Source: a virus
Lineage: Duplodnaviria > Caudoviricetes
DNA length: 64,000 nt
IMG/VR virus record: IMGVR_UViG_3300013383_000001
Location: 32,001-96,000 of that record
Direction: 5' to 3' (one strand)
Within the stretch, counting starts at the first letter, position 1, and the number at the start of each line of letters is the position of its first letter. The position numbers were made by a program, and so were the translations under genes. The notes below the pieces were generated by a model. That model worked only from the letters and a program-made list of their open reading frames with translations, was not told where the DNA came from and did not search any database. This document shows, piece by piece, positions 3,431 through 56,867 of this stretch.

Positions 3431-3596
3431 AGTTATAGATGAATATAAAGAATTTATTTGTAAAGTAAACTAGGGATATAGACCTGATTATGAATTTATT
3501 CTTGAAGAGATTTCATTCATAAACGATATGGATGATTTAGATAGTGAATCTATGTTATAGTATTATCTTAATAACAAATGGCGGATACAATCTTAA
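3405..3596 (+). CDS. Small hypothetical protein (63 aa)
   Basis: MDVDALKNKVIDEYKEF... with two in-frame TAGs. Overlaps both neighbours and fills the gap exactly. Confidence 0.6.
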
Positions 3597-5338
3597 CTCC
3601 TGGAGATAATACTCAGGATACTCCTACTACTTCTGTTTATTTAATAACGGATAACTTTTTAAGCGAATTTGAAACTGAAGCAGCTAAGAAAGCAGCTCGT
3701 ACTAATCTCAATGTATTATCTGCTGATGATACATATACTAAAGATGCTATTGAAAATGTAGCACTTACTGCAGCTAAAGAAGTTGTTGAAGATTATTCTA
3801 ATAGTGCAGAGTTTATAACTCCTGCAAAACTTGCTGATCAGTTAATTAAATACGCTAGATTAGATGGTACATATCCTTTTACCAAGCCTTAGAAAGGTGT
3901 TACTCCTATTTCTGATGAAGATTTGACTACTAAGAATTATGTCGATCTTCTTATAAAGACTTGCCTTAAATCAGAAGATAAATAGATAATTGTTGATTAG
4001 GTAAAGCAATTGCTTCGTAGTTATGCACAAACATCTTCTGTTTATAGTAGAAGTTAGACTTACACTAAGACAGAAGTAGATGAACAATTAAATAAGTATG
4101 CTAAATTAGATGGAACAACTCCATTTAAAGGTATACAAAAGGGTATTTATCCAAAGGTTGGTAATGATTTAACTACTAAAAATTATGTGGATGATGTGAT
4201 GAAAAATCACAATAATGAAGCAGATCCTCATAGTTTTTATTCTACATTAGCAGATCGTTTGGATAAATATTATACTAAAACACAAACATATCCTCGAGAG
4301 CAACTTTATACAAGAGATGAAACAAAAGATATGGTAAGTAAAATTGCTGAGTCTATTGTTGATTCTGTACTTAAAGATGCTCAAGATGTAATTATAGATA
4401 AAGCTGTAGAAAGAGTTGCCTATAAAGGAGGATATGTAAAGCAAGATGGGTCTACTAAAATCGCTAAACCTTAGAAGGGTGTAGCTGCACAAGATGCTAA
4501 TGACTATGTAGTATTAAGTCAATTAAAATAGGTAGTATCTGATGTTAGTAGTAATATCAAATCTATAAGTAATGTATGGAAAACAAGTGGTCCTTCGACA
4601 GTTGTAGTAGGCAACATTAAAGAAGGAGATACTCTTGCTAACGAATATACTTTACAACAGATTATGGATAAGATATTCTATGGTAAGTATATATCTATTT
4701 CTCATGATGGTGATTATGTTTCTTTTGGAGAAGCAGTTACTGTAACAATTTGTGCTTACGGAGGAATTGATAATGTAGATACTGCATACATTGCAGTGAA
4801 TGGTAAGAAAGTTATGGATATTGATCCTGAAACTTTAAAGAATGGATGCTAGGAAGTTAATATTCCTAACTCTGGTGATACGGAAATGAAAATTGAGTTT
4901 GTAGTAAAAGATAAGAACGAAGTGGAGCATAAGGATTATTGTGTTGTAAAAACATCTGCACCCTTATTTACATTATGGATTCCTTTCTGGAAGGCTACGG
5001 CAGATTTAAATTGGGATTATATTACAGATGCTATTACAAACGATTCGACGAATAATAAGAAGTGGGATATAAGTCCTAATTCAACATCTTTAAAAACTGC
5101 TATAGATTTCAGTTCTTCAGATGGGACTTTATATACTCCTGTGATATTGATTCCTGAGAACTATAATGATCTTGAATCACTTAATATCACAACTTAGATA
5201 TTTAACAAGTAGGCATTTGATTATGTGTCTATTCCTATTGAGATTCCTAATGCTGGTACGTTGATTTATAAAGTATATAAATTTAAACAAGGTAATGCAG
5301 CATTTCACTCTAACATACAATATACATTTGAATCATGA
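3578..5338 (+). CDS. Tail fibre protein with three internal repeats (586 aa)
   Basis: Joins track ORFs 3578, 4187, 4664 and 4886 in one frame. Repeats have the form Y-x-[RK]-x-DG...[PI]QKG...D(L)TTKNYVD. TGA 5336-5338 overlaps the next ATG. Confidence 0.75.
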
Positions 5339-10450: not shown

Positions 10451-12223
10451 ATGAGTGAAACTAAAGTATTTGCATTTCCTGAATCAAATAATACAGGAAT
10501 GGACGCCGCTCTTTTAGCCAATCTCAATCGTAACAATGATCCTATGGCTGCAATGGCTATGATGAATGGTGGAATGAACGGAATGTGGAATAATCCGTAA
10601 ACAATGCTAAGTCTCGAACATTTAATTAAATTCAGTGAAATTTGGAACATTCCGGAATAATTCATATATTTGAATATAATATTAATCTAAAATTCAAATT
10701 TTATGGAAAATTGGAAAATTATTGAAGGAACAAACAATCACTATGAAGTTAGTAATTTAGGAAACATAAGATGTGATGGTCAATTGGTTAAGACAGAAAT
10801 TGAAACATCTGGATATGTAAAAGTTAGAATAAAATTGATTTTTGGGACAAGATGGTTTTCTCTTCATAGAGTGGTAGCTGCATATTTCTGCGAGAATCCA
10901 GAAAATAAAGAGCAAGTTAATCATATTGATGGAAATAAAGAAAACAACAAATCTGAAAATTTAGAATGGGTAACTAATACAGAAAACCAACGTCACAGAA
11001 TAGATGTTCTGAAGAAAAATTGTAAAGGAGAAAATAATCCTATGTATGGAATGTCTGGAGAAAAATCCCCAGTATTTAAAGGATATATTTATCAAATTAA
11101 TCCTAAAACTAACGAAGTAGTAAACAAATACGCAGGTAGCGGAGAGGCTGCCAGGGCAGTTAAAACTCAACCTTGTAGTATTTTAAAAGTTATCAATAAA
11201 CCAAATAGAACTTGTAAAGGATTTAAATGGACGAGATAATAAGCGGATTTAAAACCTCGTAAATTCACGGAAATTCCTAGTATTAGGACAATCTTGATCC
11301 AATCTTTATTAAAGATGGAGCAACGACTATTTAAATATTTAAATAAGGTTTAAGCAAATCTTAAATACGAGGGCTTTTCAATATAGAAAAGTATGATATA
11401 GTCTAATCTCTATAGTAATATAGAGAGAATATACAAACGCGGTATATTCATAATACAAAATGTTATTTACTTAGTGTGGATGATGTTTGCCCAGCGTATG
11501 TGGGGTAATAATTGGGGAAATGGTCAAGGAGCTCAGAATATTGAGATCTAGGATCAATTATCTGCAATCCGTGAACAAATGGGTACTAATCAGAATACTA
11601 GTCTTTTAATGGATGCGATTAAGGGTAACGGCACTGCTGTCGGTCAGCTCGCTGGTCAGCTTAATTGTGATTTCAATACTCTTAATTCAGCTATATGTGA
11701 TGTTCGTGGTGGTATTGATAGACTGGCAGGTGAAGTTGGATTTAGTGCAGAACGTGTTATTAATGCAATTAACGCAGGTGATGCTACTATATCTAGACAA
11801 CTTGCTGAGTGCTGTTGTAATACTCGTGAAGCTATTACTCGTCAGGGTTATGAGAATCAGTTAGCAACAGTCAATCAGACTAATGCTTTACAGAGTGCAA
11901 TTAATTTTGTTAACTCTTCTGTGGAGCGTGGTTTCTCTGCTACTAATTATGAAACTCAACGTCAGACGTGCGATATTACTAAGGCTATAGGTGAATCCAC
12001 TGCCGCCATTTTAGCAGGTCAGAAAGCCGCTGAGATGCGTGAAATGCAACGTGAGATACAGAGCTTGAGAGATGAGCGTACTGCTTATCAGATGTCAGCA
12101 TTGACACAGTAGCAAACTCAGAATCTTGTTAATCAGTTACGTCCTTGTCCTGTACCTGCATATATAACTTGCAATCCATTTGGATGTCAAGGTGATTATG
12201 TAACTTATAATGGTGGTTGCTGA
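10451..12223 (+). CDS. Intron-split coiled-coil protein of unknown function; join(10451..10598,11463..12223), 302 aa
   Basis: Splicing restores GMWNNP-F-IYLVWMMF in frame with track ORF 11579..12112. Contains LAECCC, long heptad repeats, C-terminal LRPCPVPAYITCNP and two TAG=Gln codons. Confidence 0.85.
10641..10672 (+). promoter_or_regulatory. Intron-internal Bacteroidota-type promoter for the HNH ORF
   Basis: TTTG (10641-10644), 20 nt, TATATTTG (10665-10672), 30 nt upstream of ATG 10703. Confidence 0.65.
10703..11239 (+). CDS. NUMOD4-HNH homing endonuclease with C-terminal NUMOD3/NUMOD1-like DNA-binding motifs
   Basis: Motifs WKIIEG..YEVSNLGNIR; HRVVA..F..VNHIDGNKENN..NLEW; KGENNPMYG; EAAR...KGFKW. 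Confidence 0.92.
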   Translation: MENWKIIEGTNNHYEVSNLGNIRCDGQLVKTEIETSGYVKVRIKLIFGTRWFSLHRVVAAYFCENPENKEQVNHIDGNKENNKSENLEWVTNTENQRHRIDVLKKNCKGENNPMYGMSGEKSPVFKGYIYQINPKTNEVVNKYAGSGEAARAVKTQPCSILKVINKPNRTCKGFKWTR

Positions 12224-15787: not shown

Positions 15788-18700
15788 ATGTTAGTTGCAA
15801 ATTTTACTACTAAGTTGCCCAACATGGGCCAGACTAAGACTTACGAAGAGTTCTCTACATATTTAAATACAAAGCCCCATCGTCTCGGCGTTGTAGCTCG
15901 TATGTATCCCGAGAACACTCTTAATTATATTCTTGATGGTCTTCGTAATGTATTTTATAACGATGCTAAGGGTTCTAATCGTTATCAGCCTATTGACAGT
16001 TTGTTCTTTGAGTGGTCACTTGAGACCAATCAGATTAAGAGAATTGCATTTGCAAACGCTCCTGAACAGACTGGTGAAGGTGGTACTGATATAACCATGG
16101 CATTTACTGAGAATTGGTATCAGAAGTATGACATCTTCCGCATTGATGAATCTGGTCAGATGTGTATTGTACTTTCTCGTCCCATTCGTAAGCGTGATGA
16201 AAACCCAATGATTGTCTCGCTTATTATCTGCAACTAACATTAAATAAATTCTTTAAAATGCTGGGAAATCGCTAGACAACCAGCAGCGAGATTACAAAAG
16301 ATAATAACGTTCAACGACTAAGGGAAACCTATAGATATAATTTGAAAAATGGAATTACAATGAAATATATAGTATTTTTGACTAAGAATAATAAATCTAC
16401 AATTAATAGTATTAATAGAATCCTTATAGGAGTACATAAAACAGAGAACCCTGATATATTTGATGGATACCTAGGAGAAGGAGTAAGAGTAAATAAAGCA
16501 TCTACATTTATGTATCCCAAAACATCATTCCAATATGCAGTAAAGAAATATGGAGTCAAATCATTTGAAAGAATCACCTTATACATATATGATACTTTAA
16601 AAGATGCATATAATAAATATCATGAAATTGTAGATGATACATTTATAAATGCTAGTTATACATATAACACTAAAATATATAAGAAATATGCAGGAATGTG
16701 TGATTATCGTCCTGTTTATCAATTCAATTTAAAAGGAGAGCTTGTTAAAGAATGGAATTGTATAGATGATGTTTGTGATTTCTATTGTTATCCTAAATGG
16801 AGATTTTACTATGCAAGAGCATCTCGTACACCACTTCTTAATTTCTATTGGTCTGGAACTAAAGTATTAAATATAGTGAATCCAGATGATAAAAGTCATC
16901 CAGTACACATGTATAATAAGGATGGTAAATTGGAATTTTCTTTTGGATCGTATGAAGATTTTGGTGAATTTATAAATGCGAACATTAAAGAAATGAATGA
17001 TATTATTTATAAACATAGATTTATAAATGGGTATTATCCATCTAACAAACTTCTTGAATCATTTGCCCCGAAAGCAAGAAGGAAATATTTAAAAGAGTAT
17101 ATGTATGTCTATAATAAAGAGGGAGAGTTTGTTGGTAAATTCTTTGGTAAAGAAGTTATGACACCTATAGGCACTCACTCTTGGAAGAAGATAGAATATT
17201 CTATAGAGCATAATGATGGGTGGTTTAATGATTTCTATATATCTTTAAATGAAGTTGATTCAGTGCCAGAGAAGAAAGAGAAAGTAACATACATTGAAGT
17301 ATTTGATAAGTTCGGTAACTTTATTGAGAAAATTGATACAATCAAAGAAGTCAAAGAAAAGTATGGTATTACATCTGGTAAAATAAACAGAATTAAACTT
17401 GGTCAAAAACATTGGGGTGACTATATATTTGTATACAATCGTAAATGATATAGTCTAAAGGATTATTGGGAGGTAACAGTTCGTCTTATTGATAATGATT
17501 ACTCATCTATCCTTGACGATTCTGCATGCCAGCCTGGCATGACTACTACTTGGGTATCTGTATCAATGCCTGAGTTGCATGAGGAAGGATACACAAAGAC
17601 ACTTTCTTCATTTGAAAAGCATCGTAATTGCATTCAGACATTCCGTAATGACATTTCTTGGTCTTCACTTTATCAGGCGCAAGAGCAAGCATTTATGTCT
17701 ATTGCTGATGATAAGGATGCTTCTAAGTCAGATGGTGTATATAAGATGGTTAAGAAGGAGAAGGAACTTCTTGATAACTTCAATTATTCAATGAACGCAG
17801 GTCTTCTTCTTAACGTGGGTAACGTTGACGCACAAGGTCGCGCTACTATTTCTGACCCTGATACAGGTCGTAAGTTGATGATTACTGAGGGCGTTATTCC
17901 TCAGGTTGAAGCATTTGCTTCTAAGTACGTATATAGCGGTAAGTTCAAGCGTCAGATCTTGAATCTTATCCTTTCTAATATGGCAGAGAAGTCTGAGAAG
18001 CTCACTGGGAATCATTATTCCATTCTTTGCACTCAGAAGCTCTGGAATGATATTCAGGAGACCCTTGGTGAATATCTTGCCAATTTCCGTACCGATGGTA
18101 CATATATGTATTCTAAGAACGCCAACAAGGGTGACGGTGGCTATATAAAGGTAGGTGCTACCTTTAATACTTATGAGATTGCCGGTAAGAAAATTGCCGC
18201 ATAATAGTAAAATGTTATTATGATAAAAATTTATTAAATTGCTGGAAAGTTACGACTAATCAGCAGCTTATTTTAAATATAAATAAGTTCATCGACTATT
18301 TTAACAAATAAAGAAATTTAAATAATAAACATCTTATGGAATTAAAATATATAGTATATATTACTATTAACCTATGTAATGGAAAGTTCTACATAGGCGT
18401 GCATAAAACCAATCCAGATGTATTTGACGGCTACATTGGATGTGGGATTTATAGACCTAATGACGCTTGTAAAAAGTTCCCTTTTCATACAGCAGTGAGA
18501 AAATACGGATATGAAAACTTCAAACGTACAACTATAAAAATATTTGAAGGGACAGAAGAGGGTAGAAAACAAGCACTTGAGTTAGAAAGAATATTAGTAA
18601 ATGAAACCTTATTAAAAAGTAAACAAGTATATAACTCAGCACTTGGTGGACAGTTGGGATGTGAAAATACTTTTAAGACGGTATATATGTTTAGTTTAGA

Positions 18701-19555
18701 TGGAAATTATATACGAAAATTTAAAAATACCAGAGAAGCTGCGTTTTTTATAGATCCTGAAAACTTAGAAGTGACAAGACAAGCTATAAAAAATAATTGT
18801 AGAGGAATTACTACAAAATCTCATGGATATTTTTGGTCTTATAGGAAAGAGTTTGTAAAGAAGGATAATGAAAAATGGAAGAAAGTTGCACAATACACAT
18901 TATCTGGAAAGTTTATAAGATATTTCGATTCTGTTACTGAAGCTGAAGAAGAATTATCTTTAAACAGCATTAGTCAAGCGGTTAAAAAAAGATACCAGTG
19001 TGGCGGATACCAATGGAGATATTATGAAGGAGATGACAATAATATTGGTCCCTTAGTAAATGCTAAATCAAAATTTGGATCTTTACCCATTGATATGTTT
19101 GATAAGGATGGAAATTTTATTAAAAGTTATGAGTCTATAAATGAATGTACGCAAGAAAATCCTAATCTTGACAAAAGTCAAATAATGCGAGTTATTAGAA
19201 AAATAATTAAAACTCACAAAGGATTTAAATTTAAATTTAAAGATGAAGATATAGTCAGTTCTAATTCAGAATGAATTTTGTCTCATTTATACCTGATAAG
19301 TCACTTACTCGTTGGTATGGCAATAAGGGCTATGGTCTTTGCCTTGATTTAACTGCAGACAAGACTAGCGGTACTCCTGCTATTGCTAAGTTCTGTCTTA
19401 AGGGTCAGGAAGTCCAGACTAATAAGATCTGGGGTGTTGCTACTCGTTCAGGTGATGTATCTTCTAACGTAGCAGCAGCTAAAATGACTATGACGGGTAC
19501 TGCTGGTGTAGCAGTATTTGCTCCGTTTAAGAGTTTTATTATCTACGAGGCTTAA
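15788..19555 (+). CDS. Major capsid protein; join(15788..16198,17461..18186,19274..19555), 472 aa
   Basis: Spliced junctions give RPIRKRD-DYWEVTVRLIDNDYSS and FNTYEIAG-NFVSFIPD. The sequence resembles crassvirus MCP, shows highly-expressed codon bias and has no TAG. Confidence 0.9.
16199..17460 (+). mobile_element. Group I intron 1 of the MCP gene (1262 nt), ORF between the P7 strands (P8 region)
   Basis: P1: exon TAAGCGTGAT pairs with GTCTCGCTTA, with U.G at the splice site. P10: CCCAATGATT pairs with exon GATTATTGGG. P AATGCTGGGAA, Q AACCAGCAGC, R GTTCAACGACTA (16309-16320), S GATATAGTC (17447-17455), terminal G 17460. Confidence 0.88.
16360..17448 (+). CDS. Intron-encoded GIY-YIG-like protein with degenerate catalytic motifs and NUMOD1-like repeats
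   Basis: KYIVFLTKN...ILIGVHKTENPDIFDGYLGEG aligns with the intact paralog at 18336. Repeats of the form VYQFNLKGELVKEW. ATG 16360 is preferred to TTG 16342. Confidence 0.8.
   Translation: MKYIVFLTKNNKSTINSINRILIGVHKTENPDIFDGYLGEGVRVNKASTFMYPKTSFQYAVKKYGVKSFERITLYIYDTLKDAYNKYHEIVDDTFINASYTYNTKIYKKYAGMCDYRPVYQFNLKGELVKEWNCIDDVCDFYCYPKWRFYYARASRTPLLNFYWSGTKVLNIVNPDDKSHPVHMYNKDGKLEFSFGSYEDFGEFINANIKEMNDIIYKHRFINGYYPSNKLLESFAPKARRKYLKEYMYVYNKEGEFVGKFFGKEVMTPIGTHSWKKIEYSIEHNDGWFNDFYISLNEVDSVPEKKEKVTYIEVFDKFGNFIEKIDTIKEVKEKYGITSGKINRIKLGQKHWGDYIFVYNRK
18187..19273 (+). mobile_element. Group I intron 2 of the MCP gene (1087 nt), ORF in the P8 region
   Basis: The exon ends GCCGGT; IGS AAAATTGCCG forms P1 and P10 (with AATTTT). 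P AATTGCTGGAA, Q AATCAGCAGC, R GTTCATCGACTA (18287-18298), S AAGATATAGTC (19246-19256), terminal G 19273. Confidence 0.9.
18336..19274 (+). CDS. GIY-YIG homing endonuclease with three NUMOD1-like repeats
   Basis: YIVYITINLCNGKFYIGVH, ALELE and YNSALGG motifs; three YxLxGxxIRxFxSxxEA-type repeats. Confidence 0.9.
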   Translation: MELKYIVYITINLCNGKFYIGVHKTNPDVFDGYIGCGIYRPNDACKKFPFHTAVRKYGYENFKRTTIKIFEGTEEGRKQALELERILVNETLLKSKQVYNSALGGQLGCENTFKTVYMFSLDGNYIRKFKNTREAAFFIDPENLEVTRQAIKNNCRGITTKSHGYFWSYRKEFVKKDNEKWKKVAQYTLSGKFIRYFDSVTEAEEELSLNSISQAVKKRYQCGGYQWRYYEGDDNNIGPLVNAKSKFGSLPIDMFDKDGNFIKSYESINECTQENPNLDKSQIMRVIRKIIKTHKGFKFKFKDEDIVSSNSE

Positions 19556-42961: not shown

Positions 42962-44880
42962 ATGTAATACCTAAATTTCAATAGGGAGGAGGGTTTTCCT
43001 CCCTATTTGTAACATATAATCCAGTTCCTCAACCATAGGCTCAAGCAGAAGCTCAACCTACGGCAGCATCTTCAGCAGAAACAAAGAAAAGTGAAGATGA
43101 TGGAATTACTAAAAAAGATATTGCACAAATGCTTGATAATATAGATGGATTACCTAGTGACATGTAGGCAGTACAAGCATCTCTTATTAGTTTGCTTACT
43201 TCACCAAGTATAGGTAGTTCTTCTGATATGTCTGTTGCTTATATGAACGCAATGACACAATTAAAAATTGCTAAGTTTAATAAGCAAGAATATGATAAAG
43301 CATATACTGCAGTATAGTAGAATGGAGGACTAGATGAACAAGCAATTACTGCATCTGGTACCTTAGTTGTTTTTAATAAAGATACTAATGGAATCGATGA
43401 AGTAACTGTTAATGAGTTTTTGAAAGATAAAGGAAAAACATATGGCACACTTACTAATTCCAACCTATTACAAATGAGAGCATGGCGTCCTGAGTATGTA
43501 AATAAAAATAACATATTAGGAGTTGTATCTAATGGTATTGGAATGAAAGAAATACACGAACTTGCATCTAAGATGATTGGTACATTGGGTACATCAGAGC
43601 AAGCAAGAGAGCAACTCAATATTAAAAAGGGTAGTGTTATTGCTCAAGGTTTACAAGTACTTAATGATGCTCAAGCACAAGCAATGATGACCGAGTATGG
43701 AATGTCGTTAGACGGTCTTTATAAAGCAAAGGTAATTACTAAAACACAGAAAGATCAAGCAGAAGCTGCTCTTAACTATGTTTATAGCATGCTTCCCACT
43801 AATGCAAGAACAATGCTTAAGTTAAGATCAGGAGATACTAAAAATCCTGATGCTGGTGCAAGAAAAATACTTGGTGCACTTGTTATGTCTAAAATGGATT
43901 CTACTTATGATCAATCTATAGACTATCTTGGAGGATTTGAGAAAGTAATGGGTAAAAGCAGTGGATCAAAGAAAGGTTCAGGATCTGGAGAAGACGGAGA
44001 TTATGATGATGGAATAGACGGAAAAGCAGGTCCATATACTGCTATTGCTCGTATGATTGGAGCAACAGATACTTCATTCACTTTAAATCCTGGTACAAGT
44101 TATCAGTTTACTGTGGATGGTAAAAGTTATGCATCTCTTCCTGATTATCAAGGCAAACCTGTCGGTAAGACCAGTCTTGAAAACTTACTTATAAGTGGAT
44201 TACAAGGTATTGTCACTAATAAAAATTCTATTACATTTGGTGATGTTACATTGGATGCTCAAGACTTTGATAACATTATGTACGATGGTCGTGGGGGTAC
44301 TCTTATTGTTGCTCCTACTAAGACTGATGCAAATGGTAGAAAGACAATTGACTTGGATGTATTAAAACGTTGGAAAGAAGCTAATGACGATCTTAAAAGT
44401 AAAGGTATTGATATTAATGACTCTTCTAAGATCAATGAAATATATAATGTCCTTCGATCACATAAACTTGAAGGTCTTGTAAATATAGGTGATAAGAAAA
44501 TTGACTATTCTAAGTTTGGTATGTTTATGGCAATTAATGCAGTTGCAGTTGCTAAAACAGATAGAGCTTAGGATAAATTTGAGAACAGTAAATTTGTTGT
44601 TGAATAGGATGATGACGATGATATTGTAGAAATGCTCAATAAAGCATTATCAACTAATGAGAAGCAAGATAATTATGAAGTAAAGACTGGCTGGTGGGGA
44701 GATGATTTATATTCTGGTGTAGTATATATACCAATTAGTAGTAATCCTTATCAATCAATGGTGGCAGAAGGACAAACGCCTAAGGAAAGTGTAGCACAAG
44801 CAAGAGAACATAATTGGCAAAGATCTAATAAGATGCTTTCGGCTCAAAAGCCTGATTCTAGTTTAATGAATAATAAATGA
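42958..44880 (+). CDS. Cargo/ejection protein (640 aa)
   Basis: Starts MNVIPKFQQGGG; contains track ORFs 43420 and 44632; ATGA overlaps at both ends. Confidence 0.7.
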
Positions 44881-47800
44881 AAGAAAACGATTATATATTA
44901 GCGAATATATTAAATCCTGAATTTGATAATTAGGATTTTAAAGAAGTATTGGGAATGGATATGGATAATACCTAGATCCTTCCTTATAATAGTTATGTTA
45001 ATAATGATTATATTAGATCAATAGGGGCATTTCAAGATTCAGATGGTACTTTTAATGAAGATAAATTTAAAAAATATTATCAAAGTGCTTTAGTAGGATT
45101 TCAAGACTTTAGTACTAATCCTTTAGTCGATGACAGTTTCGAGTATGGAGTATTTGATGCTTATCGTAAACCTGATTCTAAAGTAAAAGATCCTCAATTC
45201 CAACTTATGAGAGTGATGAATCCTAATCATGAGAGTATTGGTATTGGTGGAATAAATCAAACCGCAGAATCTCCTTTAACAGGTGCAGAAATTGCACAAA
45301 CACAGAAGATATTTGATTCTGCTACTGGAAAGTATTTGGATTATTCTCCTAATGATATATCTTTAACTAGTAATGTATTTGGTTGGTTTAAATCATTGTT
45401 TGATGATCCTTTAGTTAGAGCAACTTACGATGAAGATGGATTCCATAAAGATCCTTTCACCGGAGAAATGGTAGGACATAAGAAAGGAGAATATAAACTT
45501 AATGATAACGGTGAATATTTCTATGAGACTCTTAATGGTAGATCATTGATCGGTAAGGAAGTACTTTCTGCTACTGATATTCTTACTGTGGATGGTGAGG
45601 GATTAAATAAGTATGACTTTTTAGATTCTGACGATAAAGAGAAATCCATAATGGGGTCTCTTGCTAAAACTGCATTATTAGTAACCCCTTTGTTATTTGG
45701 AGGTCCAGTTAGTGCAACTTATAGTGCATTATTAGTAGCTAAGGAAATGACTAAATCTCTTCCTATGCTTCAAGGTATGTTATCGTCTGCATTTGGTGAT
45801 GGGAGTGATTCTAAACTTATAAACACTCTTGCAGGGTATGCCAATAAATTTACAATGGGTGTATCTGAACATTCTAAATAGAATGTATTTACTTGGGAAA
45901 ATACTATCAACCTTATGGGAGATGTTGCTCTTCAATGGGGGCAGCAGCAATATATTGCAAAAGCAATTGCTGATTTACAAGGATCTACAAAGAAAGTAAA
46001 GGCAGCAGAGAAAGCAGCTAAAGAATTTTATAAACTTAATACAGGTAAAGAAGCCATTGGAGAAGAATGGCTAGAAACCACAGTAGGTAGAATAGCTAAT
46101 AAAACTATTCTCATGCCTGCTAAGATAGAAGCACAAAATGCTTATAAACTTGGTGCAGATGCATCTCTTGTTTATATGGCGTTAGTTTCTAATGAACCTG
46201 TATACGAAGAAATGCTTAATCATGGAGCATCAAAAAGAGATGCAGCGTTAGTTTCATTTGCTAGTTCTGTAGGTATGTTCGGGGTAGATAAATGGGCACA
46301 TTTAGGAGAAATCTTCTTCGATGAACTTAAAAATGAATCAAAAATTGCTTTTAGAAATACTGTAAAAGATTAGATTGAGAAATCTATGGACTCTCTTACA
46401 GAGATAATTAAAAATCCTGAAGTAAAGAAGAAAACCAAGAACCTTATCATGAGAGGAATGGATATTGGTAAGAAAGCGGTTAATAAATTTAATGATGACT
46501 TAAAGAATCACACTCTTGGTTTCTTTGGTAAAGCAATTGGTGAAGGTTTGGAAGAGGTATCTGAAGAGTTTGTAACTGATATATCTAAGACCATCTACGA
46601 AGTAGCAGGTGAATATGATTCTAACTTCTTTAATAGATCAGGTATTAGAGACGTAGGTGCATGGGATAATATGCTCGAAAGATATAGCATGTCCTTAATA
46701 GGTGGTACGCTTGGTGGTGGATTATTCTACGGTGTAGGAGTTGTTAAAGGTGGTAACTTTAAAAGAGATAACACCAAAGATAATCTTATTAACTTAGTTG
46801 CAAATAATAAGACTAATGAATTACTTGAACAACTTGATAAATTAAGAGACCAAGGTAAGTTAGGAAGTACAACATTGTCTGCAACCAAATATGAAAACAC
46901 CAGTGACAATAAGCCTGTTTATCTCACTACTACTGATAGTGAAGATACATAGAATCAATATGTATATAATAGAATAAAAGAATCTATTCTTCAAATTGAT
47001 CAATTACTTAAATAGACAGGTACTAAATTGAGTGATCAAGATCTATTTAATCAATTAGTCCAAAATGAAGAAAGATTTACTTAGCTCTCTGAATTAGAAA
47101 AAGAACAATCATATCTTACACGTTATCAAGAAGATTTTCGTGTATTAACCAGAAAACTTATTGATGCTGAAAAAGATTATTAGAATGCATTAACAAGTGA
47201 GGATGGTACACCTGGAGGAAAGCAATTTGAAGGTGATGTTATTGGTGAAAGATATAAAACAGATGCGGCTCGTTTAGAGAATATTGCTAAAGCAAAGAAA
47301 ACAGTCGATGAACTTAGAAAAGCTCGTAATGATTTTGCTTCTGGTAAAGCATCACTTCCTTATTTGGAGAAATTGTTATTTACAATAACTCCTAATATTC
47401 ATAATGCTTTCATGTCTATGACATACGCTGCTTGGGTAAAGAATAATAAAGGAAAAGATGTACTTACTCTTACGGATTCTGAACATGCTACTTATAAACA
47501 AGAATATCTTCAATATAAGAAAGATAATTAGAAAGATGATATTGAAATGGCATATTCTTTCTTTAAATAGCTGTAGGAGTTAGTAAATCCAGAACTTAAA
47601 AATATTTCTGAGAAAGCTAAGGCTTTTAAAGAGAATGATGAAATGTTTCAAGAGTTATTTGGTAATGAATCTGTTTTTGTAAAGTATAAATTAATTGATT
47701 ATAATGGAAAATTAGAGGAAGAATCAGAAGAAGAATATAATAACAGGGATACTAAATTAGAAGGAGAAACGGATCAAGAATTTGAGGCAAGGAAAAATGC

Positions 47801-50800
47801 TCGTATAAATAAAATAGAATAGAACAATCTTCGTAATATAAATAAAATAAATGATTTTATACAAGAATTAATTGATAAAACTGGAGGAATTGATTTATCT
47901 ACATCTAGACAACTTGTAAATATTTTAGGAACAAGAAAAAGAGATCAAGTACAACGTGTTATTGATGATTATTCTGATGAACAAGCTGCATATAATGTTC
48001 CTGTTATATCTGAAATTATTAGACAGCTAAATGTTGATAATTATGGAAATATTACTAATATCAACGATATAATTGAGAAAATTGCATCACATGTATCTAG
48101 TAATAAAGCAAAAGCAATAGTGCTGAGTACTGATGACACTTTAGAGGATGCTATTGAGGGAATTACGAGTTTAATGTCCTACTCTAAAGAAGTATCTGAG
48201 GATGAGAAGGAGCAATTATTAAATAAATGGTTGCAAGATGATGATATGGTTGAGGAAATCGTATAGGAATATAACGCAATTGTCAATCAATCAAAACAAG
48301 AAGCAGCTGATTTAGTTCAAAGAATTTTAAAAAAAATTCAAAGAAATCCATTTATTCAATTCTTTGATATTGTTCGCAGTAAATTAATTGCTAATAATCC
48401 AATTCAAGCATTAATTTCTAAACTTCCTGTTAATAATCAAGAAACTATAGAATAGTTGCTTAATAATATGTATGAAAGAATGTTAGGATTAAGATCTAAA
48501 GAAGATTTTATTTTAACAGGAGAAGAAGAATCATCTATCGAAGAAGCAGTTAATGTTTTAAATGCCTTAAGTTCTTTGCTTGCGACATAGGTTGAAAATC
48601 CGTCAATATCCGATAGTTATGCAGCAATTATAAATGAATTTGGTAAGAAGTATAAAGCTGATGGATTTGAAGAATTAGTAATTTTAGATGATGATGTGAC
48701 AGCTACATTAAAAATGGAAATTGATTCATATCTGGAAGAATTAACTGGAAGCACATCATTATTAAATGTATCTAGTATCAATCAGGTTAATACTATACAG
48801 AAGTTGATAAATACAGATACTAATTATGCCAAATCTATGGTAGAATTTTTCCATGTAATTAAAAGTAGTGGAAATTTCAAGTTTGTTCATAATGGTACTG
48901 AATATGATTTGTTAGAAGGAATAGACCAAATCTCTGATGAAGAACCATAGGTTAAGTTGGCAAAAATAGAACATCTTTACTATACTAATCTACAAAAATG
49001 TTTACAAAACATGTCTTTTACAGAAGTATTAGACGCTTGTAAACTTATTAGTAAAGATGATCCTAGCTCTGTTCTGAAATTAGATGAAGTTTTAGGACAA
49101 AGAAGTATTGAATTAAATGAAAAATTTGAATTTAATTCCGTAACAGACTATCAAAAGTTTATATATTTATTAAGTATAAGTGCTTTAGATTCTGAAGAAT
49201 TTAACACATATGTAAGAAGTACATCGAATGATACTAATACCAATGGAGATCCTATAGTTCCTTTAACCTCATAGGAAGTAGTAATTCGTACTGGAATTGC
49301 AAAACTTAAGGATAACTCTATATTTGAGCAAGGTATTGCATATATTAAAGACCACATAAATAAATATTAGTTTACACACATAACGTTTATAGATGGTCTT
49401 GCAGGAACAGGTAAATCTTCTGTTTGTGCAAAGAAAATTATTCAATTTAAAAATACGGATTAGGTTTGGGTTAGTTCTAATACAGATGTACAAACAGATT
49501 CGATTCATAGTGCAATAGGAAAAGGAACAAAGTTTAATAAAAAATAGTTATTTGAAAAAATAATAGATCCTCATATCTATGAATAGTTAATGTCTGATTT
49601 AGATGCAGATAAAACAAATTCTGAATTATTTACATTCAAAACTGATCCAGATGGAAATAACTATATCTTAGTAAACTTTGATAAAATTACATTTAACAAT
49701 GTAGATGATGCTCCTGTTATTTTATTAATTGATGAAATCACTCACTTTAGTAACGCTGAATTACAAATACTAAATAAATTTGCGCAAGATCATAACGTAC
49801 AAATTATAGGGTTAGGTGATACTTATCAATCTGGATTTGAACACATTGGAGAAAATGTACAAAGACCAAAAGGATTTATGGTTAGATCTCCTAAGTTATC
49901 AATCTCATTAAGAGCAAATAACTCTTAGAAATTTGCAAATCTCAATAAAATTAAATCTTTAATAGATTTTGTATATACAGTAGATGATTCGAATGATCCA
50001 AAACTTGATTTATTCAAAAGAAAAGTAAGAGAATTAACTCTTCAAGTATATAACAAAGAAGAAATAAATGGAGATTTGATAACGGATACAATAACTGAAG
50101 AAACTGCTCGTAAATTAAGTGGATCAATTGCATACGTTGGAGATACAAATACAGAAGCATTTAACACTTTAAAGAGTGTTCACCCTGAGGTCAAAGTATT
50201 AAGTGTCAAAGAAGTACAAGGTCAAGAATTTGATAATGTTGTAATAAATATTGATTGGAATTATGATTTTAATCAAAATGCTTCCTATTTAGAATTTTTG
50301 CGAAAGTTATATACTATGATTAGTAGAGGTAGAACCAACTCTATTATAATAGATAATAATTTAACGCATATTATTCAAGGGAATGACATTTCTAATCGTT
50401 AGATGGCTGCTCCTAATTTGTAGAGTTCTGCAAATGTATTTATTGAATAGAAAAATATAATTTATAACAAATTAAACGTTCCTGTTCCTTCTCAGAATAC
50501 ACCACAGCAAGGAGATACTACACAAAATCCCTAGCAGGGAGGATAGTAGAATCCTCAATCACCTGCTCCTCAGGGACAGACACCACAGCAAGGAGGAACT
50601 GGTCAAGGTGGATAGAATCCTGCTGCGCCATAGCAAGGTGGTCAAACACCTCCTGCGTAGAATCCTCCTTCAACACCTCAAGGTGGATCTGCTAATAGAG
50701 TTGTAAAATATGGAAATTCAATATTTAATCCAAGTACTGGAGTAATTACATTTAATACTCGTGGTTTAAAAGATGCTAAAGATTCAAGTAAATACTTTAT

Positions 50801-53800
50801 AGTAGAACTTGATGATGCAACTGGTACTGGTACATATAGAATAAATCCTGATGCAATAGACTATATTAAGGGCGATATAGATGTATTCAGAGATACTAAT
50901 GCAGTTGAAATGGATACTGCTGGAGTTACTGCAAATAACATAAAAGATCTAAAAGATACACAGGTAGGAACACTTATAAAAGATGGGGATGGTTGGAAAG
51001 TTAATAAAAAACTTAAAGTAGAAATCATTAAAGAAGGAGTTCCTCCGACTACTCAACCTCCTATATAGAACCCTCCAGCTAGCCCGACCGTAAATCCTCC
51101 TACAACTGATCCTGAATCAACTGAATCTTAGGATAATTCAGGATAGGATCAAGGATTAACTGATGGTACTGGAGAGACACCAGCCCACAAACGCGATGTT
51201 GATGAAGAACCTGAAGAAGATGAACAAGCATTGATTGCTTAGATGGGTAATGACAATATGGAGGATAAATTAAAATCAGCAAATTTAGATGATAATTCTG
51301 AAAGCATTATCCAAGAAGGATAGAATAGATAGGAATCTGTAAAGTAGACTAATAGTTTCCCGATAAGAGTATACAGTGAAGTATCACTTAGTGGACTTGT
51401 AAAACAAGGGACTATTTCTTCAGGCGATAGAAAAAGAACAATATATAGAAAAGGAAATAATTTAAATAATCCTGGAGTTACACATTAGGATTTACAAATA
51501 TTTATAGATACTGACACTATAGATGGTAATAATTTAACTCCGTATGTAAAGCAACTACGTTTATTAAAATCTGCAATCGTTTATGAAAGAGAGTGGGAAG
51601 ATCTTCCTTCTAATTTCCGAGATTTTCTTTCTTCTAAAGGTATAACAAAACAGAGTTTTAATGAGTTAAAAAAGAATATACACATTAAAATTCGCAAAAG
51701 AAGAGATAGTGATCATCATATTGGTTGGAATGGACTTGAATCAGATAAACTAACTATAGGTGAATATGTTTATACAGTTGTTGCTCAAGTAACCCCTGAA
51801 GGATCAACTAATACTTTTGAAATAACATTGGGAGCATTAGCTAATCCTGATTCTTATACTGTTTCTGAATGGGCAAGAAGTAATGGTAAAGAAGAACAAA
51901 CTAAACAAAACATATAGAGTTATAAAACATTATTCGATAGCTTAACTCAATAGGCAAAACAAGCTATTGATCAAGGAGGTATACTTGATTTAGTGCCTGG
52001 AACTGTACAATTCTCAGGAACATCTTACCTTAGACATTATCAAGGCACTGGAGCAGAAAGAACTAGGGTTCCTGTTACAGATGTAGGTCATTATAGGGCA
52101 ACACATCCTTTTTAGGTGATTACCGAAAAACATATTATTGTTAATCAAGATGGATCGTTTGATTAGCCAAAAGGTAAAATTCCGTTAGGAGGAAAAACTG
52201 TTTTATTTGTATCGGACGATTTAACTTTAGAAGGTAAAGATTTATACGAATTATATATTAAACAAAGAGAAGCTAATAAAGATGGAAGAGTAAATCCTAG
52301 TTCTAAGAAGTATCCTATTAGAATGATAATTCTAACAAATACTGGTATTGCTTACACAGATTTCTTTAAATATGGTTATAACTATTCTACATAGCAAATG
52401 ATTCGTTTTCCTTTTGAAAGAGATTTTACTGGAGCAAGAATGATGACCGCCCTGTGGAATTATCGAGCATCTTTATATAATTTCAAAGAATATTTGGATG
52501 ACTTTATTAAAAAAGGAATTGAAGGTCATCCTGAAATAATATTAACGAAAGAGTTAATATTAGAAGCATTAAAAGAGGAAGCTAAACATTATGATGTTAA
52601 TACAGGGACATCTACTGTAGATGAAAATAATTAGTATTACACCATAATTAAAGCAATTAAAGAATTTAATGATTCCTTATCAGATAGTGTTCGACAATTT
52701 AGGCTTGGTTATTATGCCGAAGAAAAAGCATTTAATTCTCAAATTAGAGTACTAACTAATGCTAATAAAAATGGAAATCCTTTCTACGGGAAAATAGTTG
52801 AAAATAGTAAAACTCCTAATAAACAAATATTAGGAACTTATATATCTCCACAATCTTTAGATATGCAGATAAAATTATTGGATACATTAATGTCCACGAT
52901 AGAAAGTATTGAAATAAATGGAGTTCCTTTTAAATTAGTGGATAAAGATGGTAATATTTATGATAAAACTAGATATATTACTTATAATGAAGGATACCCA
53001 AATTCTGTATCTCAATTAACAAATTTAGTTAATCAAGAAACAATAACTGTCGATGGGGTTACAATAACTGGATTTAGTAAATCGTTCTTAAAACTACTTC
53101 CTCTTTTTCTGAAAGAAATAGAATTAACAGCACGTCTAGATAGGGGAGATAACACTATGGATGTAAATGGTGTTAAAGTTAATACAACTAACTTGCTTGA
53201 TACTTTAAATGAATATGCAAATGGAGAGCAAGGATATGGTTCTGATAATTTCTCTTTATATACTGAATTATTAAATTTAATATTTCATGGAAACGCTAGA
53301 GGAGATATTAGTAGAAGTACAACTCATGCTACAGATGCTATGTTTAAATATGGATTCTTTATAGATCCGTATGGTTCTGCAGTAATTGAAAATACAAACA
53401 AACAAGCGTAGTTGAAAGAGTGTACAATGTCTGATAAGATGTTTCTTATTGATGTTGAAGTTGACATGCCTGTTTTCTCTATTAGTCTAGGAGAAATGAA
53501 AAAAGCTATAAGACAAGCAACTTAGAATACTAATCCAAGTTAGACTGAACAAACTCCAGTAGGGGAGCAAACTCCACCAGAAGAATCAGCTTCAGTAGAA
53601 GAGTAGAATCCTCCTGCTGAGCAAACTCCTCCAGAATAGACATCTCCTACTACAACACCTACTCCTAAACGAGGTAGAAGAAGGGGTGCAAAAAATACTG
53701 CTGTTAGCTTTGAAACATTTATTAGCAATTTAGACGTCGATACTAAAGTTGCAGAACTTGGAAATATTACTATATCCGAATATTTAAAAGCATTAAATAA

Positions 53801-56800
53801 TGGAGAAGAAATAACGGATTTCAAATTAACTAAAGATGGAAATAAACTGATAGTCGATACTCCAGTAGGAAAATTTGAATTTTTCCTTGATATGGATAAT
53901 AATTTATAGGTAACTAATCCAATTAAATCTCCTAAAAAACTTGATCCATCAGATATAATTTCTACTACTCCTATTAACAATCCTGCTTATAATATTACCA
54001 AAACACCTCCTTTTAAAGCAAGATTTCAACCTCAAGGAGGTAGAGGTAAACTTATATATGCTCAAAGTGGTACTGGCAAGACTACTATCGCAGACAATGA
54101 AACAGTATTTGATTCTGATTGGATTAAAGCTAAATTGCTTGGAGTTCCCACTGAATTAGCAGGAACTGTAGAACATTTAATGTCTGATTATGTATGGGTA
54201 ACTGAGGAAGTAAATGGGGAAACAGTTAAAAGAAAAGTTCCTATTGAGTAGATGCAGCTCTTGAATAATCCAGAAGTAGCACAACAACATGCTGTTATAA
54301 TGCAGAAGTATGAAAATGGTATCGATCTTACTAATTCTGAACAGTTTGCAGAGTTCTAGCAATTATATCCATGGGAACAGTATGCTTTATTAAAGAAATC
54401 TGATGATATTTTTTACGTTGATGAAAGCACTTTAAGCGTTAGGCTTGATGGATCTAAGACAAAAGTATATGTACATGAGTATCTTGATGAATTTCCAACT
54501 AAAGGAGATATAGCAGAGCGTGCAATTAATAACATAGAAGCAAATAAAGGAAATGTATCTTTAATAACTAGCAATGGGATAAAAATTGACTTTAAAAATA
54601 TTAAATGTACTAAATACCCAAACGCTTAGTTCTTTACAATTGAATCAATAATTTCCGATCCTATTGCATCCTAGGAATATAATAAAGTTGTAGCTGCATT
54701 AAACTATCCAGATGTTAATTTAAGAAATATAAATGATGTACTTGAAGGTACTAAAATATGTAATATTTTAATAGATAATGAATCTGGTGTATCAAGCGAG
54801 GCTATTATTCCTGGTATGAAACCAATGCTAGAAAGTTATAAAGGATTTAGTAAAGTTTATCCAAACGGAGAAGTTGTTTCTAATTCATCAGAATCAAAGG
54901 TACAACAATGGATAAACGGAATACCTGCTGTTTCGGCTAGTGATGAATTTAATGTACTAGTTACAGTTCAAATAAATCAATTATTGGATCAAGGAATGAC
55001 TGTCCTTTCTACTAGAAATTAGGATATTGGTCAAGCGGATTACATTGTATATAATGAAACCGATAGGCAATCCAAAGATCGTACTGGTAACTTTGATAGA
55101 GGTAATTAGTATGATAGCACTGATGCTTGGTAGAAGTCAATGGACATCATTAATAAAGTACCTGATGATAGTAAAAAGTACGCATTAAAAGAAGGAGAAT
55201 ACTTAGGTCATGTCCTCTTAGAATCAGGATATGAGAACTTTAATATAACGTTAAATCGTATTAAAGAAAATAAAAATGTAGCCTAGGCGATTTAGACTTT
55301 TTTTGGTAATTTTGGAATAACTGTTGAAGAATACGGAGCAGCTGGATATAGTATTGATTATTTACAGCGTGTAATTCAAGGTATTCATGGAGAAGGGGAT
55401 CTTGTTGAAGGCGCAGGTGAGTTTATATCATTCATGATGCAATGGAATGAAAGAGTTAAACACATTATAGGACGTGCTGAGGAGCTTAAAAATCCAGATG
55501 GTACTAAATACTTCTAGGAGAGAAAAACTAAAGCAGGATAGCCTTATACTAAGTTTAATGATTTTGCATATAAAGACTTAAATAAAGCAAATTATTTTAA
55601 GATGCTTGGTGCATTAATTGATGCAGAATTAGCACGTCAATTTAATGTTATTAAAAATACAGATAATGTTTCTTCTGCATCATTAGAAGGATTAGCAAGT
55701 ATCGAAGATATAAAATCTATTATATCCAGTTTTGATTCTAAAGTATCTGATGATGAAGATCTTGTTGAAGAGATTTATAAATTTGTTCAATATGCTGCTT
55801 TTAATATGCTTGCTAATAATCAAGGAATTATATTGCAGAGTATTACTAAGCCTGGGGCAAAGATGGAAGGAAGGGTATATAAGGTAAATGTGGAATAGGC
55901 ATTTGATGAAAACCCATGGGAGTTTGAGATAGTAAAAGCTCTATCCAATACAGGAGTGGTATCCTTAGCAGGAAGTACAGCAATGGCAACACAAGGAGTA
56001 GTGTATAGACCTTTAGAGAATCCATTACATGATCTTGATTTTAATACATACGCAACTGGTAAAGTAAATTCTAACGAGGACGCAAAAGCTGAAGTTGATA
56101 AAATCTTAAATCAAGTTAGACAATCAGATATTCAGAATAGAAAGCATGTTAGAACCATGAATAATCCAAATAAAGAAACAGGTAATATAGATAATTACAC
56201 TGTTACATATTTGGTTTTAGCTGATGCAGATGGACGTACAATTCCTTCTGATTCGATTACTTTAGAACAAGAAGATTATGTTCAAAGAGGAGAAACCAAA
56301 AATGATAATACACACCAGAGAGTTATTGTCAATGGAGAAGTTATAGGGCATATTGTTAGAGGTAACATAACATTCACTAAGGCAGGCTTTAAAGGTAAAT
56401 TACTTGATTTCTTTGTACATCCTAATGGTGTAAAACTTTCAAATGGTACACAGCTTCATCCAAGAGAATATAATTATAAAGGAACAATTCTATTAATGAC
56501 AGATTATAGAATGGCTCTTGCAGCAAAACAAAGATGGGCAAGATTAAAAGACATTTTTGATTATAATAGATTTGTAAAAAACGAACAAGAACTTACTACT
56601 AGAATAGTTGAATCTACGAATAATAATAATTCAAAAGCAATAATAGATATGCTGAATGAAGTGGTAGGAAAAGTAACTATTAGAACAAAAACTTAGAAAG
56701 ATAAGGTAGTTTAGTTTATACAACTATTCTCAGAAGATCAAAGTATAGATAACATAAGAAACAATTGGAATAGTAAAAAAGAAGTTCGCGATGCTGTTAA

Positions 56801-56867
56801 AAGAATAGATGTACAAACATTCAATACTATAGATAATATTATTAATAACACAGTAAAAGATTGCTAA
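44877..56867 (+). CDS. Giant multidomain virion protein (~3996 aa) with SF1 helicase, second P-loop and nucleotidyltransferase-like domains
   Basis: Twelve track ORFs from 45207 to 56696 share one frame and end in TAG. Helicase motifs GLAGTGKS, LLIDE, GLGDTYQ, VQGQEFD and YTMISRG; YAQSGTGKTT at ~54058; LAGS...HDLDF...RLKDIFD at ~55960-56565. Confidence 0.75.
50492..50690 (+). repeat. Low-complexity coding repeat (Q-N/T-P-Q-Q-G-G) linker
   Basis: ACACCACAGCAAGGAG occurs twice, and variants put TAG, CAG or CAA at equivalent positions. Confidence 0.7.

Follow-up and report, generated by a model that had tools for sequence, protein, structure and literature searches.

The window, a stretch of 64,000 nt, derives from a 166-kb gut phage in which TAG is recoded to glutamine, and it holds three exons of the major capsid gene (Table 1), the first two of which are separated by the group I intron at 16199–17460 that is treated here (intron 1). 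Exons 1–2 of the homolog L001 match phrog_11589 (major head protein, E 2.6e−11). No match was returned by megablast of the window against GenBank phages, a protein search with capsid exon 2 yielded two 'Bacteriophage sp.' records, both unannotated, and nothing else, and the capsid homolog gave no useful match in the PDB. According to the available part of Yutin et al. (2021, PMC7886860), Delta/Zeta crAss-like phages have genomes of 145–192 kb, TAG recoding and capsid genes split by several endonuclease-encoding group I introns. The phage of the window resembles them in all three respects and, judging by genome class, TAG recoding and split capsid gene, is probably of this intron-rich crAss-like kind; that part of the article describes neither intron RNA structures nor a P9-less class, nor GIY-YIG ORFs with degenerate catalytic residues. 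Many intron nucleases compete for the capsid genes of these phages, and intron 2 of the window carries an ORF that matches Pfam NUMOD1 (1.9e−11) and the homing endonucleases of phrog_314 (1.7e−23).

Table 1. Features of the split capsid gene, with positions counted from the first letter of the window
Feature	Position	Strand	Basis
Major capsid protein exon 1, 137 codons	15788–16198	+	ORF list; L001 uninterrupted over the junction; last nucleotide before the 5' splice site is U16198
Group I intron 1; length 1262 nt; IA-like core that includes P7.1; ORF lodged in the P8 loop; P9 absent	16199–17460	+	P/Q/R/S elements; splice sites from L001
P1: exon AAGCGTGAU (16190–16198) paired with internal guide GUCUCGCUU (16214–16222), U16198-G16214 wobble included; the intervening loop bears the P10 strand	16190–16222	+	Sequence; duplex −7.5 kcal/mol; homologous same-site pairing in L005, L049, L056
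P10 5' strand CCCAAUGAUU; partner at the start of exon 2 is the 10-nt GAUUAUUGGG (17461–17470)	16204–16213	+	10 bp, −12.6 kcal/mol
P3 5' strand AAUUC+UUU 16247–54; P4 UGCUGG 16259–64 / CCAGCA 16280–85; 2-bp P5 16269–70/16275–76	16247–16285	+	Sequence
P6, degenerate, 3 bp + 4 bp flanking a 2x2 mismatch	16286–16311	+	ViennaRNA on extracted segment, −1.5 kcal/mol
R element; P7 5' strand GACUA 16316–20; then P7.1 mini-hairpin AGG-GAAA-CCU 16321–30	16315–16330	+	
P7.2 remnant 16331–43, no stable hairpin; P3 3' strand AAA..GAAUU 16345–56	16331–16356	+	
P8 5' strand UUACAAU, takes in A and U of the ORF1 start codon; pairs with AUCGUAA (17438–17444), one A-C mismatch	16355–16361	+	
ORF1, 362 aa: GIY-YIG-fold N-terminal domain (F6, L22, Y87; E89, N103 kept) and four beta-beta-alpha-alpha-beta modules; stop TGA in J8/7	16360–17448	+	Family alignment; AlphaFold; structure match
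P8 3' strand 17438–44; J8/7 AUGAUA 17445–50; P7 3' strand UAGUC 17451–55; 5-nt tail UAAAG, terminal G 17460; no P9/P9.0	17438–17460	+	
Capsid exon 2 (242 codons), which contributes its initial 10 nt to P10	17461–18186	+	
Group I intron 2 (comparator), intact-motif GIY-YIG/NUMOD1 ORF 18336–19274, small P9	18187–19273	+	Junction EIAG|NFVSF set by L002, L003

The splice sites of intron 1 were taken from L001, which lacks an intron at this site and reads without a break as ...SRPIRKHD-YYWEVQVRLIDNN, so that the junction RKRD|DYWEV at 16198|17461 is fixed and leaves no space for a downstream P9. The earlier note had described an intron that ends directly behind P7, and this holds: the S element GATATAGTC (P7 3' strand TAGTC, 17451–17455) is followed by TAAAG alone before the exon begins at 17461, and the ortholog in L004 has an identical tail. 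The other two introns of the window, 2 and 3, keep a P9, as had also been proposed, in the form of hairpins after S (TTCT..AGAA and CTCTATA..TATAGAG). The 5' splice site is marked by the wobble U16198-G16214 in P1 and the 3' end by G17460 before exon 2, and we infer splicing from the exact restoration of the conserved capsid reading frame. P9 has been described as essential (PMC3873408, beyond which little literature on P9-less introns was found), which would speak for a mis-assigned 3' splice site with P9 located downstream or supplied in trans. Against this, the homology of exon 2 starts precisely at 17461, terminal G, reading frame and 10-bp P10 agree with this position, and at least 10 distinct introns from two sites (same-site and site-78/79 relatives) share the architecture, their tails of 5–9 nt invariably ending in G; the probability of a misplaced site, named earlier as a possible refutation, is close to negligible.

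Intron 1 is a genuine group I intron, very reduced and IA-like. Its P, Q, R and S elements lie at 16259–64, 16280–87, 16310–20 and 17447–55, the core pairings P3–P8 are present, and covariation among relatives was seen for P3 (ACUC/GAGU in L098), P4 (UGUGGG/UCCACA in L099), P7 (a compensated double change, GAUCA/UGAUC, in L094) and P8 (UUACUAU/AUAGUAA, UUAUUAU/AUAAUAA, UUGCUAU/AUAGCAA, UUACUGU/ACAGUAA). The P7.1 stem is fully paired in 24 of 25 distinct introns, with GNRA loops and many compensatory variants (GGG/CCC, ACC/GGU, GGC/GCC, GAU/AUC, and others), and it was this covariation that ruled out AGGGAA (16320–25) as the 3' strand of P3, which is found at 16345–56 instead. P5 is minimal, as noted earlier: 2 bp (TC/GA) compared with 3–7 bp among relatives. 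P7.2 and the ORF start are no more than about 30 nt apart. An Rfam search of the window, run at the gathering and at E-value thresholds, left intron 1 unmatched and returned chance matches only, because the 1.1-kb ORF inside P8 splits the intron; in relatives that lack the ORF but have this P/Q/R/S core, scores on RF00028 are 46–84 bits (59–84 bits when set against the gathering score of 50). A helix between the start and the end of the ORF (16363–73 with 17420–30) is perfect in the window but unconserved in the site-79 alleles, and it is not claimed as structure.

The earlier note had further coupled the loss of P9 to the catalytic degeneration of the encoded protein, and here the survey of relatives contradicts it. 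Same-site introns whose ORFs have intact YIVY, IYIG and E-x-E motifs also lack P9 and end in 8-nt tails (L005, L042, L040, L056), introns from which the ORF was deleted are likewise P9-less (L005:1527–1735 and the remnants in L040 and L051), and two introns with degenerate ORFs at other sites retain a P9 of 7–8 bp (L098, L099). P9 loss alone therefore needs no dedicated protein. It follows the insertion site and a long P10, independently of the state of the ORF: the P10 of intron 1 (10 bp, −12.6 kcal/mol) and those of the other P9-less introns (−6.7 to −11.9 kcal/mol) are stronger than those of the P9-bearing relatives (+0.3 to −3.8 kcal/mol), and across relatives a strong P10 takes the place of P9. 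The 3' splice site of intron 1, 5 nt past P7, is most likely set by its unusually long P10.

The protein encoded in intron 1 (ORF1) is intact, as reported before. Its AlphaFold model has a pLDDT of 86.7 overall and 92.3 over the N-terminal domain, whose best PDB match is the catalytic domain of I-TevI (1LN0; Z 8.2, rmsd 2.8 Å, 85 residues), followed at ranks 2–5 by other GIY-YIG nucleases including PD-T4-3, T4 EndoII and UvrC; on this model the domain is predicted to have the GIY-YIG fold and not that of LAGLIDADG proteins. It is about 40% identical to SegD-like genes of T4-like phages, and this genome contains no intact close paralog of ORF1. The NUMOD1-like repeats mentioned in the earlier note are borne out in part: four modules follow the N-terminal domain in the model and PF07453 is precomputed for many relatives, while the Pfam search of ORF1 itself gave no significant match. 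The family profile found no useful match among PDB sequences, and Foldseek with the whole ORF1 model was uninformative (multi-RRM proteins in the top rows, TM 0.12; I-HmuI at probability 0.51).

ORF1 belongs to a family of GIY-YIG ORFs specific to capsid introns, and it departs from that family at three motif positions (Y6F, Y22L and E87Y). The family has tyrosine at positions 6 and 22 in 110 and 112 of 121 members, so that the YIVF and ILIG of ORF1 are genuine and both off the consensus, and glutamate at position 87 in 106 of 121. The claim that the metal-binding glutamate is lost is only half right: position 87 is changed, and a second conserved acid, at position 89 (glutamate or aspartate in 109 of 121), is kept in ORF1 as E89; hhalign of the family against I-TevI gave a probability too low to map E75 onto either 87 or 89. 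N103, H26, K54, Q58, K62/63 and R71 are kept as well, and with E89 they make a residual or altered catalysis conceivable: ORF1 could still cleave as a homing endonuclease whose active site has been rewired, and in which the three substitutions are tolerated or compensated, for example by Tyr87 together with E89, N103 and the basic residues. F6 also occurs in otherwise intact members. The alleles that share the F/L/Y state (a group of six) are found at two insertion sites, which requires module recombination or some residual mobility, and they are mosaic between near-identical capsid backgrounds, as mobile genes are. The YIG-motif tyrosine, though, is required for catalysis in I-TevI and UvrC, and it is replaced in ORF1. 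Sister alleles carry K, C, Q, T or N at 89 together with Y, L or F at 87, hence no acidic ligand at either position, and both positions vary freely throughout the degenerate clade, unlike an active site. Retained nuclease activity is accordingly judged improbable.

A protein that no longer cuts could be on its way to loss. A dN/dS analysis, suggested earlier as a check, points to strong purifying selection and not to decay: between ORF1 and its ortholog in L004 (96% identical) dN/dS is 0.07 (N-terminal domain 0.065; dS 0.29), four other F/L/Y alleles give 0.18–0.26, compared with 0.08–0.24 for intact pairs, and the former catalytic domain gives 0.065–0.37. Such constraint is what a repurposed protein predicts and, judging from the coding sequences, ORF1 appears to be held by purifying selection independent of nuclease catalysis, as a maturase would be. 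A recent inactivation in the sense of the Goddard-Burt cycle, with the gene intact merely for lack of time, would agree with the replaced catalytic residues and with the known ORF-deleted remnants of related introns. It is refuted in practice, and we regard it as very improbable, given the 49 synonymous and only 18 non-synonymous differences behind the value of 0.07, the F/L/Y state common to alleles that are about 47% identical, and the dozens of deeply diverged degenerate clusters, all of full length although A+T-rich sequence favours chance stops. Among the closest clusters at 50% identity, about 20 combine degenerate motifs with full length (338–365 aa). Degeneration came about at least three times: well-supported branches force at least three changes of motif state and the best tree has nine. 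Constraining the F/L/Y group to one clade was not rejected (p-AU 0.56, lnL +6.5). Within that group the conserved N-terminal positions changed in nearly all members are only 6, 22, 87 and the variable 107, and 83 of 115 conserved positions are kept.

Where the ORF is degenerate, the RNA next to it is reduced too. The segment comprising P7.1 and P7.2 measures 27 nt in intron 1 and 5–28 nt in 13 of 13 lineages with degenerate ORFs examined, compared with 29–40 nt and a P7.2 of 4–9 bp in introns with intact ORFs, and P6 energies are −1.5 to −6.4 kcal/mol in most degenerate-ORF lineages vs. −6.3 to −13.0 kcal/mol in intact-motif relatives. Degenerate ORFs thus co-occur with a short P7.1–P7.2 and mostly also with a weak P6, in few lineages: the raw count of 10 out of 10 for a dead motif with reduced RNA is not statistical evidence, as about three independent contrasts lie behind the association, and the phylogenetically independent test of a dead motif against short P7.2/weak P6 comes down to a single contrast. 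Moreover, since P7.2 adjoins the ORF, it may merely travel with it during module recombination.

Phage introns are commonly regarded as ribozymes that need no help and whose nucleases are purely selfish. The descriptive parts of the explanation that we favour, namely a reduced P9-less intron with a strong P10 and a degenerate yet constrained GIY-YIG ORF, are jointly held with high confidence. Its further steps are that the ORF1 protein would no longer cut DNA but would be retained for a nucleic-acid-binding task, and that the likeliest such task would be to bind its own reduced intron RNA and stabilise the P3–P8/P7 core. A maturase-like role of this kind would account for the loss of peripheral helices beside degenerate ORFs. 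With its start codon in P8 and its stop codon in J8/7, ORF1 would have to be translated before the RNA folds. Taken as a whole, with the role of ORF1 included, the explanation is offered tentatively, at somewhat under an even chance.

Its main competitor keeps the loss of cleavage and makes ORF1 a DNA-binding protein that represses its own or capsid transcription, or that occupies the homing site, thereby blocking rival nucleases or provoking recombination. Repression of its own expression by way of the DNA-binding domain is documented for I-TevI (PMC3943268), the C-terminal region of ORF1 with its four modules is well predicted and conserved, capsid genes in these phages are beset by rival nucleases, and purifying selection is explained equally well. 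What a DNA-binder leaves unexplained is the strong constraint on the former catalytic domain and the peripheral-helix loss in the adjoining ribozyme; besides, an allele already occupied by the intron is immune to cleavage at that site. We consider this role rather unlikely, though less so than retained catalysis.

Compared with phage IA introns that carry nuclease ORFs (T4 td/I-TevI, SPO1 DNA polymerase/I-HmuI, Twort), intron 1 shares the P/Q/R/S core, the P7.1/P7.2 extension, a structural or metabolic phage gene as host, and an ORF that is looped from a peripheral helix (P8, as in SPO1) and whose ends overlap core pairings. It differs in lacking P9/P9.0, in the near absence of P5, P6 and P7.2, in its 10-bp P10, in a ribozyme of only about 190 nt and in the replaced catalytic tyrosines of its ORF. 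With I-TevI and Seg-type GIY-YIG endonucleases ORF1 has in common an N-terminal GIY-YIG fold and modular DNA-binding repeats behind the nuclease domain, but it has F6, L22 and Y87 instead of the Tyr, Tyr and Glu of 88–93% of the family, in a clade that varies freely there, and four tandem modules where I-TevI has a zinc finger and a helix-turn-helix. Its resemblance to the LAGLIDADG group I maturases (yeast bI3 and bI4, I-AniI, the Thermotoga 23S intron protein) consists in an intron-encoded endonuclease relative with degenerate catalytic residues that is under selection, in an essential gene, beside an RNA missing stabilising elements; the differences are the GIY-YIG fold, the host (a phage, where those maturases are organellar) and the merely putative maturase activity of ORF1. 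To our knowledge, group I maturases come solely from the LAGLIDADG fold and are mostly organellar, and we know of no GIY-YIG maturase.

If ORF1 is a maturase, it is of a new type, and if proteins like it help splicing, they represent an independent domestication of a homing endonuclease, one that lends itself to testing with an RNA of 190 nt and a protein of 362 aa. More speculatively, the whole radiation of GIY-YIG pseudo-nucleases in capsid introns of crAss-like phages might serve hyper-reduced group I ribozymes (about 157–190 nt, without P7.2 and often without P9) as obligate splicing cofactors in cis, and possibly in trans as well; this wider proposal, to which we give roughly one chance in three, would make them the first group I maturases outside the LAGLIDADG fold and the first in phages. 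Whatever ORF1 does, there is a natural P9-less class in which P10 probably assumes the positioning of the 3' splice site, and the results are relevant to how the capsid genes of abundant gut phages should be annotated. The 157-nt introns with neither ORF nor P9 are found alongside an F/L/Y ORF in the same genome, and they may have a helper in trans. Few natural group I introns are as small as those of the P9-less class and the ORF-less ones of roughly 157 nt, which makes both useful for ribozyme engineering.

The position of intron 1, a group I intron in the major capsid gene, was fixed with the intron-less homolog L001, whose protein is uninterrupted across the junction (...SRPIRKHD-YYWEVQVRLIDNN) and therefore places the junction in the window at RKRD/DYWEV (16198/17461). 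The S element (the 3' core including the 3' strand of P7; GATATAGTC, 17447–17455) is followed by TAAAG and then by exon 2, leaving zero nucleotides for P9 or P9.0. This junction also gives a U16198–G16214 pair in P1, and the intron ends with the expected G at 17460; a mis-called splice site was rejected. The earlier note had described intron 1 as P9-less with a minimal P5, and P9 as kept by the other two introns of the window; all of this held, with hairpins present after S in introns 2 and 3. One paper treats P9 as essential and regards introns that lack it as 'very unusual' (PMC3873408).

Intron 1 remained unmatched in an Rfam scan because of its 1.1-kb insert, and RF00028 scores 46–84 bits on ORF-less relatives sharing its P/Q/R/S core. 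The fold, revised with ~45 related introns, is that of an IA-like phage intron with a ribozyme part of ~190 nt. P7.1 and P8 covary extensively across the related introns, and compensatory changes in P3, P4 and P7 were seen in the homologous loci L098, L099, and L094. The L094 intron, inserted at the same site as intron 1, has a compensated double change in P7 (L094:121-132 / 1240-1252; GAUCA/UGAUC vs GACUA/UAGUC) and an ORF with F6/L22 and E87 kept, and may represent an intermediate state at this site. The P8 loop of intron 1 is occupied by its ORF (ORF1), with the A and U of the start codon paired in P8 and the stop codon falling in J8/7. The segment ACUAUAUAUUU (17420–30) is perfectly complementary to the ORF1 start (16363–73), a pairing with no conservation in site-79 alleles.

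Capsid gene exons and structural elements of intron 1 (window positions)
Feature	Position	Remark
Capsid exons	15788-16198, 17461-18186, 19274-19555	
P1	16190-98 with 16214-22	
P10	16204-13 with 17461-70	
P3	16247-54 with 16345-56	
P4	16259-64 with 16280-85	
P5		2 bp
P6	16286-16311	only -1.5 kcal/mol
P7	16316-20 with 17451-55	
P7.1	16321-30	3-bp hairpin, GNRA cap
P7.2	16331-43	nearly all gone
P8	16355-61 with 17438-44	

ORF1 is uninterrupted (16360–17448), and its translation (MKYIVF...RILIGVH) confirmed the reported YIVF and ILIG. More than 570 full-length relatives were found at 42–50% identity. In an initial set of 91 loci, 87 have ORF1-like ORFs flanked by exons of the capsid gene, and their insertion sites are numerous. 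Against the family consensus (YIVY / IYIG / K-E-x-E / YN) ORF1 carries F6, L22, and Y87 and retains E89 and N103. The model of its N-domain (pLDDT 92.3) best matches the I-TevI catalytic domain (Z 8.2, rmsd 2.8 Å, 85 residues), followed by other GIY-YIG nucleases, while the remainder is predicted to form four beta-beta-alpha-alpha-beta modules.

The suggested dN/dS check indicated that the gene is not decaying: ORF1 and its ortholog in L004 (96% identical) are separated by 49 synonymous and 18 non-synonymous changes (dS 0.29, dN 0.021, dN/dS 0.07; 0.065 in the former catalytic domain), which led us to reject neutral decay. For capsid exon 1 of the same pair dS is 0.18 and dN 0. The ratio is 0.18–0.26 in a second group with F/L/Y at residues 6, 22, and 87 (site 78/79; L009, L011, L092, L095) and 0.08–0.24 in pairs with intact motifs. 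With the motif columns left out, a tree uniting the six F/L/Y proteins was 6.5 lnL units above a free quick search (p-AU 0.56), and nearly all six are altered at conserved family positions 107, 221, 289, and 290 in addition to 6, 22, and 87. When 1.84 billion cluster representatives were searched exhaustively, the nearest clusters included ~20 with degenerate motifs, every one 338–365 aa long, with patterns including FLYQ, FLYT, FLLN, FFMM, FFYK, YLLE, YYAG, and YYYT. These gather in a well-supported clade (29/42 rows degenerate), and motif state changed at least three times as forced by strong branches, or nine times on the best tree. As the clusters are full-length and the changes repeated, catalytic loss with the protein kept is recurrent and long-lived. 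The data fit a domesticated pseudo-nuclease, and the general idea that a dead GIY-YIG protein was retained for another function is supported across a wider set than the earlier note proposed. Among the possible roles a maturase-like one ranks first, as a plausible candidate that would have its precedent in LAGLIDADG proteins (PMC3073962, PMC3943268) and would be in keeping with how far these ribozymes are stripped down; a protein that does nothing but bind DNA is less likely, and a nuclease still active after rewiring less likely again.

Tails of 5–8 nt after S were found at site 137/138 of the capsid, that of intron 1 (L004, L005, L040, L042, L049, L056, L094, L097; exceptions are L052, with 14 nt, and L050, with a proper P9 of 6–7 bp), and of 6–9 nt at site 78/79 (L009/L011, L012, L029, L035, L054). 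The P10 duplex reaches -12.6 kcal/mol (10 bp) in intron 1, -6.7 to -11.9 in other P9-less introns, and +0.3 to -3.8 in relatives bearing a P9 hairpin; in the simplest mechanism, an extended P10 would replace P9 in positioning the 3' splice site. The proposal that P9 loss created a need for the protein was not supported by the survey of homologous introns, where P9 loss does not go with degenerate ORFs: P9-less introns also harbor intact-motif ORFs or have lost the ORF, and L098 (FLLN) and L099 (FFYK) have degenerate ORFs, yet P9 hairpins of 7–8 bp.

The ORF-deleted P9-less introns (L005:1527-1735, L040 ~1979-2147, L051 ~1992-2183) keep the first 10–17 codons (MKYIVYL...) joined to the last codons, which form P8 and J8/7; L005 retains just MKYIVYLITNIKS*. 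They look like three independent deletions, all with P8 intact. ORF-less P9-less introns of ~157 nt, which would rank among the smallest group I introns found in nature, lie near the capsid gene start in L011 (~3522-3678), L009, L092, and L095 (P1 8 bp, P10 6 bp, P8 3 bp, tail TAAATG, no GNRA P7.1), with an F/L/Y-type ORF ~300 nt downstream in 4/4 genomes.

The P7.1–P7.2 region measures 5–28 nt in all degenerate-ORF lineages examined and 29–40 nt, with a P7.2 of 4–9 bp, in intact-ORF introns. P6 is usually weak with degenerate ORFs (mostly -3.4 to -6.4 kcal/mol, compared with a median of around -9). Phylogenetically independent contrasts between motif state and these RNA features numbered one in the first data set and perhaps three in the enlarged one. 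P7.2 is only ~30 nt away from the start of the ORF and for that reason may just be inherited along with it. Modular exchange does occur: L011:4001-5086 and L095:2501-3583 have an identical capsid exon flank (189 nt) and 97% identical intron 5' RNA, and only 37–68% nucleotide identity in the central ORF block (~aa 60-190), a pattern that indicates allele shuffling or a hypervariable module within the intron ORF.

The virus record is 166,364 bp long with direct terminal repeats. TAG must encode Gln in its large late genes (14–65 TAG codons per ORF, window 25077-56867; 65 in the 3996-aa ORF at 44877-56867) and replaces Gln codons within the capsid gene and intron ORFs of relatives (L001, L003, L005, L009, L011); the window's own capsid exons have no TAG. 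L001, spanning exons 1-2, matches phrog_11589 'major head protein' (E 2.6e-11). Stop-codon recoding and intron-rich capsid genes are described for crAss-like phages of 145–192 kb (Yutin et al. 2021, PMC7886860). The ORF of intron 2, in the same capsid gene, extends across the P7 3' strand and a small P9 (19248-19274), and its stop TGA (19272-74) straddles the 3' splice site (terminal G 19273). Intron 3 (10599-11435), also group I, has an HNH ORF (10703-11239) and a 7-bp P9, and resides in an unrelated gene starting at 10452.
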